From: Escherichia coli | Lineage (GTDB): Bacteria > Pseudomonadota > Gammaproteobacteria > Enterobacterales > Enterobacteriaceae | Length of the DNA: 64,000 nucleotides | Strand: one strand, 5' to 3' | Assembly (NCBI RefSeq): GCF_016903815.1 | Contig: NZ_CP069973.1 | Part shown: in pieces, positions 60,942 through 61,008 of the stretch | Position numbering within the stretch: position 1 is the first letter of the stretch | Layout of the letters: each line of letters begins with the position of its first letter | Position numbers and translations under genes: made by a program | Notes under the pieces: generated by a model | Told to the model about the DNA's origin: nothing | The model's input: the letters and a program-made list of their open reading frames with translations, nothing else | Database searches by the model: none

Positions 60942-60950
60942 TAAACCCTG

Positions 60951-61008
60951 TTTTCCTTGCCATAGACACCATCCCTGTCTTCCCCCACATGATGTGGGGG
61001 TTTTTTTT
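60951..61008 (+). ncRNA. cpxQ: cpxP 3'UTR-derived sRNA CpxQ ending at the cpxP terminator
   Basis: ttttccttgccatagacaccatccctgtcttcccccacatgatgtgggggtttttttt immediately after cpxP stop; matches remembered CpxQ sequence; 5' end is processing-defined so approximate. Confidence 0.6.

Follow-up and report, generated by a model that had tools for sequence, protein, structure and literature searches.

The analyzed stretch of Escherichia coli DNA (64 kb in length, hereafter the window) carries, according to its list of open reading frames, the genes cpxA and cpxR on the minus strand, followed by cpxP, fieF, and pfkA on the plus strand. The cpxP coding sequence, which forms part of the parental mRNA of the small RNA (sRNA) CpxQ, occupies positions 60441..60941 of the plus strand, as given by the open reading frame and by the RefSeq annotation of the identical sequence. 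It ends with the stop codon TAG (60939-60941), and a second stop codon, TAA, follows directly (60942-60944). The cpxR-cpxP intergenic region contains a CpxR box of the form GTAAA-N5-GTAAA (60347..60361, minus strand), the sole match with zero mismatches in the 64-kb window. The 663 bases around cpxQ are 100% identical in many complete E. coli genomes, and the cpxQ locus itself was found in 5423-5425 of 5426 such genomes. Two minus-strand open reading frames over the cpxQ region (98 and 46 amino acids), antisense to or downstream of cpxP, were set aside as mechanical, since they are not conserved as coding sequences; the same applies to an open reading frame that begins inside the terminator loop. 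Elsewhere in the window, five further Rfam matches exceed their gathering scores, namely STnc490 (8462-8585), ES222 (6389-6496), SECIS_3 (39032-39090, minus strand), naRNA4 (58131-58208, minus strand), and ES036/CssrF (63213-63254, minus strand). Among these, naRNA4, a REP-derived nucleoid-associated RNA, adjoins the 3' side of cpxA, ES036/CssrF lies downstream of pfkA, and the SECIS_3 element probably belongs to a gene for a selenoprotein (fdhF or fdoG, for example).

In the MG1655 reference, an annotated ncRNA gene cpxQ (b4716, 58 nt, 4106330-4106387) is found right after cpxP. Alignment of b4716 to the window places the mature sRNA at 60951..61008 on the plus strand (UUUUCCUUGCCAUAGACACCAUCCCUGUCUUCCCCCACAUGAUGUGGGGGUUUUUUUU), with 57 of 58 positions identical. 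The window sequence is therefore the CpxQ sRNA from the cpxP 3' UTR, already known and annotated in K-12, as had been proposed from the letters of the sequence in a preliminary description. The sole mismatch falls at 60992, the middle base of the terminator loop, where the window has A and K-12 has C. Neither of the two conserved pairing regions, at the 5' end and in the internal loop, includes this position, and both are unchanged relative to K-12. Comparison with the known CpxQ sequence, suggested in the preliminary description as a check, thus revealed no divergence in the seed regions. The window allele is the majority form in E. coli and the K-12 allele a minority one: the 58-mer of the window occurs exactly in 4192 of 5424 E. 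coli records (77%) and that of K-12 in 899 (17%), with other variants in approximately 330 records. The ATGATG loop, as in the window, also prevails across other Enterobacteriaceae.

Some details of the preliminary description had to be adjusted. Its interval 60942-61008 (67 nt) comprises the TAA codon, a 6-nt spacer, and CpxQ, so that its end at 61008 is retained and its start lies 9 nt 5' of the mature end at 60951. The same distance of 9 nt between the stop codon and the CpxQ 5' end is modal across species. A length of about 60 nt was proposed correctly for the RNA, which had been placed between the cpxP stop codon and the terminator; only 40 nt separate the stop codon from the terminator hairpin, and the terminator belongs to the 58-nt sRNA. 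The terminator had likewise been recognized as a hairpin followed by T8, with four C's written in the hairpin string in place of the five that are present.

CpxQ folds with a minimum free energy of -17.4 kcal/mol (z = -2.35) and can be divided into three parts. The single-stranded 5' seed region UUUUCCUUGCCAUA (60951..60964, plus strand) is invariant in 118-121 of 121 sequences. It is followed by an internal 5-bp hairpin, AGACA/UGUCU with the loop CCAUCCC (60964..60980, plus strand), which constitutes the second conserved pairing region. The pairs of this hairpin, taken from the minimum-free-energy fold, are unchanged in 118-119 of 119 sequences, and because they never vary, covariation is silent on it. 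The third part, identified by a terminator scan, is the Rho-independent terminator with its U8 tail (60982..61008, plus strand). The hairpin CCCCCACATGATGTGGGGG (60982-61000) has 8 pairs, 6 of them GC, and a 3-nt loop, and T8 occupies 61001-61008. The terminator with its U8 tail ends both the cpxP mRNA and CpxQ and is the predicted binding site for the proximal face of Hfq. The seed boundaries and details of biogenesis used here derive from reviews and later E. coli papers.

The distribution of CpxQ was analyzed in one genome per species using the pattern CCTTGCCANNGNCN{1,4}ATCCCTGTCT, which was derived from the blocks common to E. coli and the Hrs1 consensus. The resulting set consists of loci having both conserved blocks, and retrieval is biased for the 20 bases fixed by the pattern. 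The CpxQ core was identified in at least 120 species from at least 42 named genera of Enterobacterales. The matches listed include members of the Enterobacteriaceae, Erwiniaceae, Yersiniaceae, Pectobacteriaceae, Hafniaceae, and Morganellaceae, and among them (at least 120 species) no core was found outside Enterobacterales. At every core locus with enough flanking sequence, the gene immediately 5' of the core, in the same orientation, is a cpxP homolog. Protein identity ranges from 97% to 36%, and the arrangement persists even where it is as low as 36-45%; at one locus (L043) the CpxP-like match is weak (E=0.004). The linkage between cpxQ and fieF is often lost.

The 31-nt body of CpxQ is almost invariant in the 121 sequences from these species, and this applies also to the positions left free by the pattern (four upstream U's, six internal positions, and one downstream U), which are unchanged in 117-120 of 121 sequences. 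Specifically, all four U's ahead of the core are retained in 118 of 120 sequences, the six internal positions occur in three core variants only (n=117, 3, and 1), and a U follows the core in 120 of 121. The presence of the locus in nearly all complete E. coli genomes, together with a near-invariant body in at least 120 species, argues against a chance similarity. The terminator, by comparison, is represented by 53 distinct hairpins in the 121 sequences, all of them pairing; exchanges between CG, GC, AU, UA, and GU at levels 4-6 of the stem are compensatory, and the U-run is 5-9 long (median 8). These terminators were folded per sequence and anchored on the U-tract, since RNAalifold on a MAFFT alignment misaligned the length-variable terminator and called only the invariant internal hairpin. 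Five terminators that seemed to have no hairpin proved to be a parsing artefact arising from UUUUU loops in Photorhabdus-type terminators. Judged from sequence comparison, such a pattern is the signature expected of a body that would be read by its sequence and a terminator that would be read by its shape. Yersinia (L010, L056) and Pectobacteriaceae (L040, L052, L055, L070, L097, L098) have in common a terminator of their own, GCCCTCC(A/T)TGATGGAGGGC, after an additional U-rich spacer, whereas their CpxQ body is the same as in E. coli.

Rfam contains no family named CpxQ, and Rfam 15 gave no match at the cpxQ locus at gathering thresholds. The best match of a sensitive search was to RF02628 (Hrs1) on the minus strand (61008-60936), with 44.5 bits and E = 3e-7 against a threshold of 56.4. 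Matches to NsiR1, RyhB, and OmrA-B in the same sensitive mode (E > 0.1) were discarded as chance similarity to a hairpin with a U-tail. Hrs1 is known from Erwinia amylovora, where an sRNA of 74 nt that depends on Hfq was verified by Northern blot (PMC4070566; Zeng & Sundin 2014). Its gene is located in the interval from cpxP to fieF, in the orientation of both neighbors, and ends in a Rho-independent terminator (PMC4070566, Table 1). The Hrs1 of Erwinia shares the core CCUUGCCA...AUCCCUGUCU with CpxQ and is the CpxQ ortholog under another name; its annotated length of 74 nt, compared with 58 nt for CpxQ, probably takes in upstream nucleotides or a precursor. The claim that Hrs1 is restricted to Erwinia (PMC4070566) is contradicted by the presence of the core in at least 42 genera.

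The RF02628 consensus opens with A7 and then a stem, an arrangement that corresponds to a terminator in reverse complement. At five Erwinia loci (L024 5697-5771, L037 1298-1373, L039 1068-1142, L046 2468-2542, and L078 1383-1454), the Rfam match is antisense to cpxP every time, twice above threshold and with up to 82.7 bits. Set against the source paper, the consensus and the Erwinia strands indicate that the model is stored in the wrong orientation, which is best explained as a database error. In addition, the RF02628 seed is too narrow to reach E. coli, so the sub-threshold score reflects the model and not biology. The Rfam scan proposed as a further check of the preliminary description accordingly failed to give a plus-strand match, the CpxQ family being missing and the Hrs1 model inverted and narrow. 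That CpxQ is easy to overlook, as the same description remarked, fits with RefSeq, where no feature is annotated under CpxQ in non-K-12 E. coli genomes among the matches listed. With neither a correctly oriented Rfam model nor a RefSeq feature, automated pipelines keep missing a regulator that is present across the order; a re-oriented and broadened RF02628, presented as a CpxQ family, would mend this annotation gap.

The position of the annotated 5' end places the RNase E cut between 60950 and 60951, in the context CCCUG↓UUUU (60946..60954, plus strand; the arrow marks the cut). This context, or a variant shifted by 1-2 nt (CCCTGTTTT, CCTGTTTTT, or CTGTTTTTT), occurs in 83 of the 120 species with enough flanking sequence. 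Morganellaceae have GAAGUUUUU or similar contexts of the GAAG↓UUUUU type, and a U-run right after the cut is universal in the sequences compared. CpxQ is known to be released by RNase E, and mutation of the conserved site abolishes CpxQ with little effect on the cpxP mRNA; Hfq makes the cut more precise and shields the resulting RNA (PMC9438474, a review). Processed CpxQ falls in the E. coli rne-3071 mutant (bioRxiv 10.1101/341578), the endogenous E. coli RNA carries a 5' monophosphate, begins with U, and is very stable (PMC10250213), and a Hfq CLIP-seq peak has been reported on CpxQ in Yersinia (PMC6635623). For E. coli K-12 and Salmonella, the literature documents a distinct RNA of about 58 nt that is bound by Hfq, carries a 5' monophosphate, and builds up when the Cpx response is induced. 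The description of CpxQ as an RNase E-processed RNA is thus supported by the literature (PMC9438474, 10.1101/341578, PMC10250213). So is the absence of a dedicated promoter: CpxQ is reported to be expressed from the promoter of cpxP (PMC5736990), and its U start with a 5' monophosphate agrees with this. The CpxR box upstream of cpxP would accordingly drive the joint cpxP-cpxQ transcript. Our scan of 60200-61200 detected no sigma-70-like promoter on either strand, with a sensitivity so low that the real cpxP promoter was missed as well.

CpxQ depends on Hfq, and its reported targets comprise nhaB, skp, agp, ydjN, fimA, and cfa (PMC9438474, PMC6755755, PMC4817254); the 5' end serves as the seed for nhaB and cfa (PMC6755755). 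In E. coli, CpxQ lowers the levels of Skp and CpxP (PMC4817254) and represses nhaB (PMC10250213). The repression of inner-membrane protein mRNAs asserted in the preliminary description is therefore correct, except that it is not limited to them, as skp, agp, fimA, and cfa are of another kind. Since the pairing regions of the window are identical to those of K-12, the published E. coli targeting results should transfer. Our own analysis of contiguous helices gave two 8-bp helices at plausible sites, one between CpxQ nt 4-11 and the cfa 5' UTR (about -136 to -128) and the other between nt 18-25 and the ribosome-binding (Shine-Dalgarno) region of skp; they are not significant, as about 30% of shuffles reach the same length. 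The complementarity of ACCAUCCC in CpxQ to GGGAUGGU in the skp ribosome-binding region is at most suggestive. The published nhaB site near +312 was not recovered as a helix of at least 7 bp in this analysis. When the CpxQ body was compared by unrestricted RNAduplex with nhaB, cfa, skp, and the 5' region of cpxP, only cfa did better than shuffles (z = -3.4).

We consider it about 97% probable that CpxQ arises from the cpxP transcript, is released by RNase E, and acts in trans as a Hfq-bound regulator, a reading that no observation contradicts; its processing at the level of this strain we infer from the literature. One could suppose instead that the region is merely the cpxP 3' UTR with its terminator, conserved for a role in cis, for instance in the stability of the mRNA or the efficiency of termination. 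In favor of this, cpxP transcription does stop at the terminator, and CpxQ has been reported to affect the CpxP level in E. coli (PMC4817254). A terminator acting in cis, however, has no need of a single-stranded stretch of 31 nt that stays invariant in six families next to a freely drifting stem. Moreover, for E. coli a discrete, stable species of about 58 nt is documented, as is the regulation of nhaB, skp, and cfa in trans by plasmid-borne CpxQ. As the restoration of nhaB, skp, and cfa repression by ectopic CpxQ in a cpxQ deletion is already in the literature, a purely cis role is largely refuted, and we regard it as very improbable. Even less probable is an independent sRNA gene with its own promoter within the end of cpxP, similar to MicL in cutC. 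Internal promoters are indeed known for some 3'-UTR sRNAs (10.1101/341578), and a scan that misses the real cpxP promoter carries little weight when it finds no promoter-like site in 60200-61200. The mature RNA nevertheless starts with U and a 5' monophosphate (PMC10250213), mutation of the RNase E site abolishes CpxQ (PMC9438474), and the cpxP promoter is the one used (PMC5736990).

The orientation of RF02628, taken at face value, would imply a functional RNA on the minus strand, in keeping with the best Rfam match at the cpxQ locus (Hrs1, 44.5 bits) and with the Erwinia scores of up to 82.7 bits opposite cpxP. Against this stand the co-orientation of hrs1 with cpxP and fieF and its Rho-independent terminator in the source paper (PMC4070566), the A7-plus-stem start of the model, which is that of a terminator in reverse complement, and the minus strand of the window itself, where the hairpin is followed by AAGACAGGG, without a U-run, and no promoter-like site was found in 60200-61200. 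We give this reading almost no credence.

For the RNase E-released, trans-acting CpxQ, the course of events would be as follows. Envelope stress would activate CpxA-CpxR, and CpxR~P would drive cpxP transcription on to the terminator. Hfq would guide and then block RNase E, with the cut between G60950 and U60951 yielding 5'-monophosphate CpxQ. The Hfq-bound sRNA would then pair, via its 5' end and internal loop, with mRNAs that include nhaB, skp, agp, ydjN, fimA, and cfa, and this pairing would either block translation initiation or promote RNase E decay. The expected outcome would be a lower inner-membrane load and protection of the proton-motive force, in parallel to the CpxP protein encoded by the same transcript.

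Upstream of the cut, we observed a cluster of AGUA and (A-R-N)n motifs (60911..60945, plus strand, from motif counts). A-R-N repeats are a known motif for the distal face of Hfq, and the cluster is a putative site of this type. In the window, it reads AGT AGT AGC AAC at 60915-60926 and AGT AGT AAA at 60937-60945 (AGUAGUAAA), and spans the SSSN codons of the serine-rich CpxP C-terminus and the tandem stop codons. The 45 nt upstream of the cut are poorly alignable across species and dense in AGUA: there are 3.2 AGTA per 45-nt window upstream of CpxQ versus 0.13 in control windows from the cpxP coding sequence of the same loci. Runs of at least three consecutive ARN triplets occur in 73% of species, as opposed to 22% of the coding controls and 31% of dinucleotide shuffles. 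Counted from the 5' end of CpxQ, the AGTA starts are concentrated at -40 to -11 (340 starts, with a handful per bin elsewhere), and the enrichment is seen in 47 of 48 genus-level groups, alike where the region is coding (E. coli) and where it is UTR (Proteus, Dickeya).

On these sequence statistics, the cluster may be a landing pad for the distal face of Hfq that guides RNase E, a function that is reasonable to infer given that Hfq is reported to contribute to the precision of the cut. The ARN cluster on the distal face and the U-tail on the proximal face would then bracket the RNase E cut and position it. A rival reading is that the AGUA repeats provide stop codons in multiple frames. A literature search (with Chao & Vogel 2016 lying outside it) returned no description of an AGUA/ARN cluster upstream of CpxQ. 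If the landing pad is real, it would explain the Hfq-dependent precision of cleavage, and it could serve as a search signature for processed 3'-UTR sRNAs.

The 3' part of cpxQ also coincides with a phage attachment site. A 47-nt segment (60965..61011, plus strand), consisting of the last 44 nt of CpxQ and ATC, agrees in every base with the attP core found in Wphi-type (P2-family) phages, as established by alignment of the window, the Wphi attP, the attL of a lysogen, and a circular P2-like genome. The 58-nt CpxQ query hits approximately 670 more places in E. coli than there are records, and matches were also obtained in 62 phage records. Among the matches listed, CpxQ nt 15-58 are present with 100% identity in Wphi, fiAA91-ss, R18C, the vB_EcoM-12474 series, Yersinia vB_YpM, and Salmonella FSLSP004. 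In Wphi (L127 2501-2547), the segment lies between ogr and int, an interval that is the usual position of attP, and in the circular 32-kb P2-like genome (L125 4001-4042) CpxQ nt 17-58 adjoin the integrase gene. In the lysogen E. coli 6EVA (L126 3531-3591), attL keeps a full-length, unaltered CpxQ, with int about 120 nt later. The Wphi site was given in 2011 as MG1655 coordinate 4104392 in the old numbering, with P2-type phages said to integrate 'between other genes' (PMC3448106). By our conversion to the current numbering, this coordinate falls inside cpxQ.

Several hundred E. coli genomes have a Wphi-type prophage at the cpxQ site, and a full-length or truncated Wphi-type integrase was found just after CpxQ at 17 of 85 loci, in at least nine other genera, which explains much of the lost fieF linkage. 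The attB of the window is unoccupied: 3' of the U-tract, its sequence continues as in K-12, which rules out a prophage there. Across the order, the invariant 3' portion of cpxQ may serve as an attB, the phage carrying a matching copy so that lysogeny would leave the sRNA intact. The distinct terminator of Yersinia agrees with a published remark that Yersinia has no attB matching Wphi; phages with the Wphi core have nonetheless been propagated on Y. pestis.

The finding of CpxQ adds nothing to biology in itself, as CpxQ is a textbook example of a 3'-UTR-derived sRNA. The AGUA cluster and the attB bear on how Hfq positions RNase E and on the use of ultra-conserved sRNA 3' ends by phages. It is conceivable, with the odds somewhat against it, that the AGUA/ARN landing pad for Hfq and the order-wide Wphi-type attB in the 3' part of cpxQ are both undescribed.

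In locus, strand, length, parental gene, terminator, and upstream CpxR-dependent promoter region, the element of the window agrees with CpxQ of E. coli K-12 (b4716) and is the same gene, differing by the one terminator-loop base; the literature on K-12 and Salmonella CpxQ includes Chao & Vogel 2016 and Grabowicz et al. 2016. SroC (from gltI), SdhX (from sdhCDAB-sucABCD), NarS, and MicL-S resemble CpxQ in using the terminator of the parental transcript as their Hfq module (PMC9438474, 10.1101/341578), in being cut by RNase E near the stop codon, and in having a conserved seed downstream of it. Their parental genes, seeds, and regulons differ from those of CpxQ, and MicL, unlike CpxQ, has an internal promoter of its own. 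As an attachment site, cpxQ is comparable to the attB sites in tRNA and tmRNA genes (e.g., phage 186 in tRNA-Ile, HP1 in tRNA-Leu), where the attP core likewise duplicates the 3' part of a small RNA. Integration at such sites restores the gene, which is the rule for 186-type integrases (PMC3448106), and the same is seen at cpxQ. In contrast to the tRNA sites, however, the target here is a Hfq-dependent 3'-UTR sRNA, and the integrase is of the P2/Wphi type.
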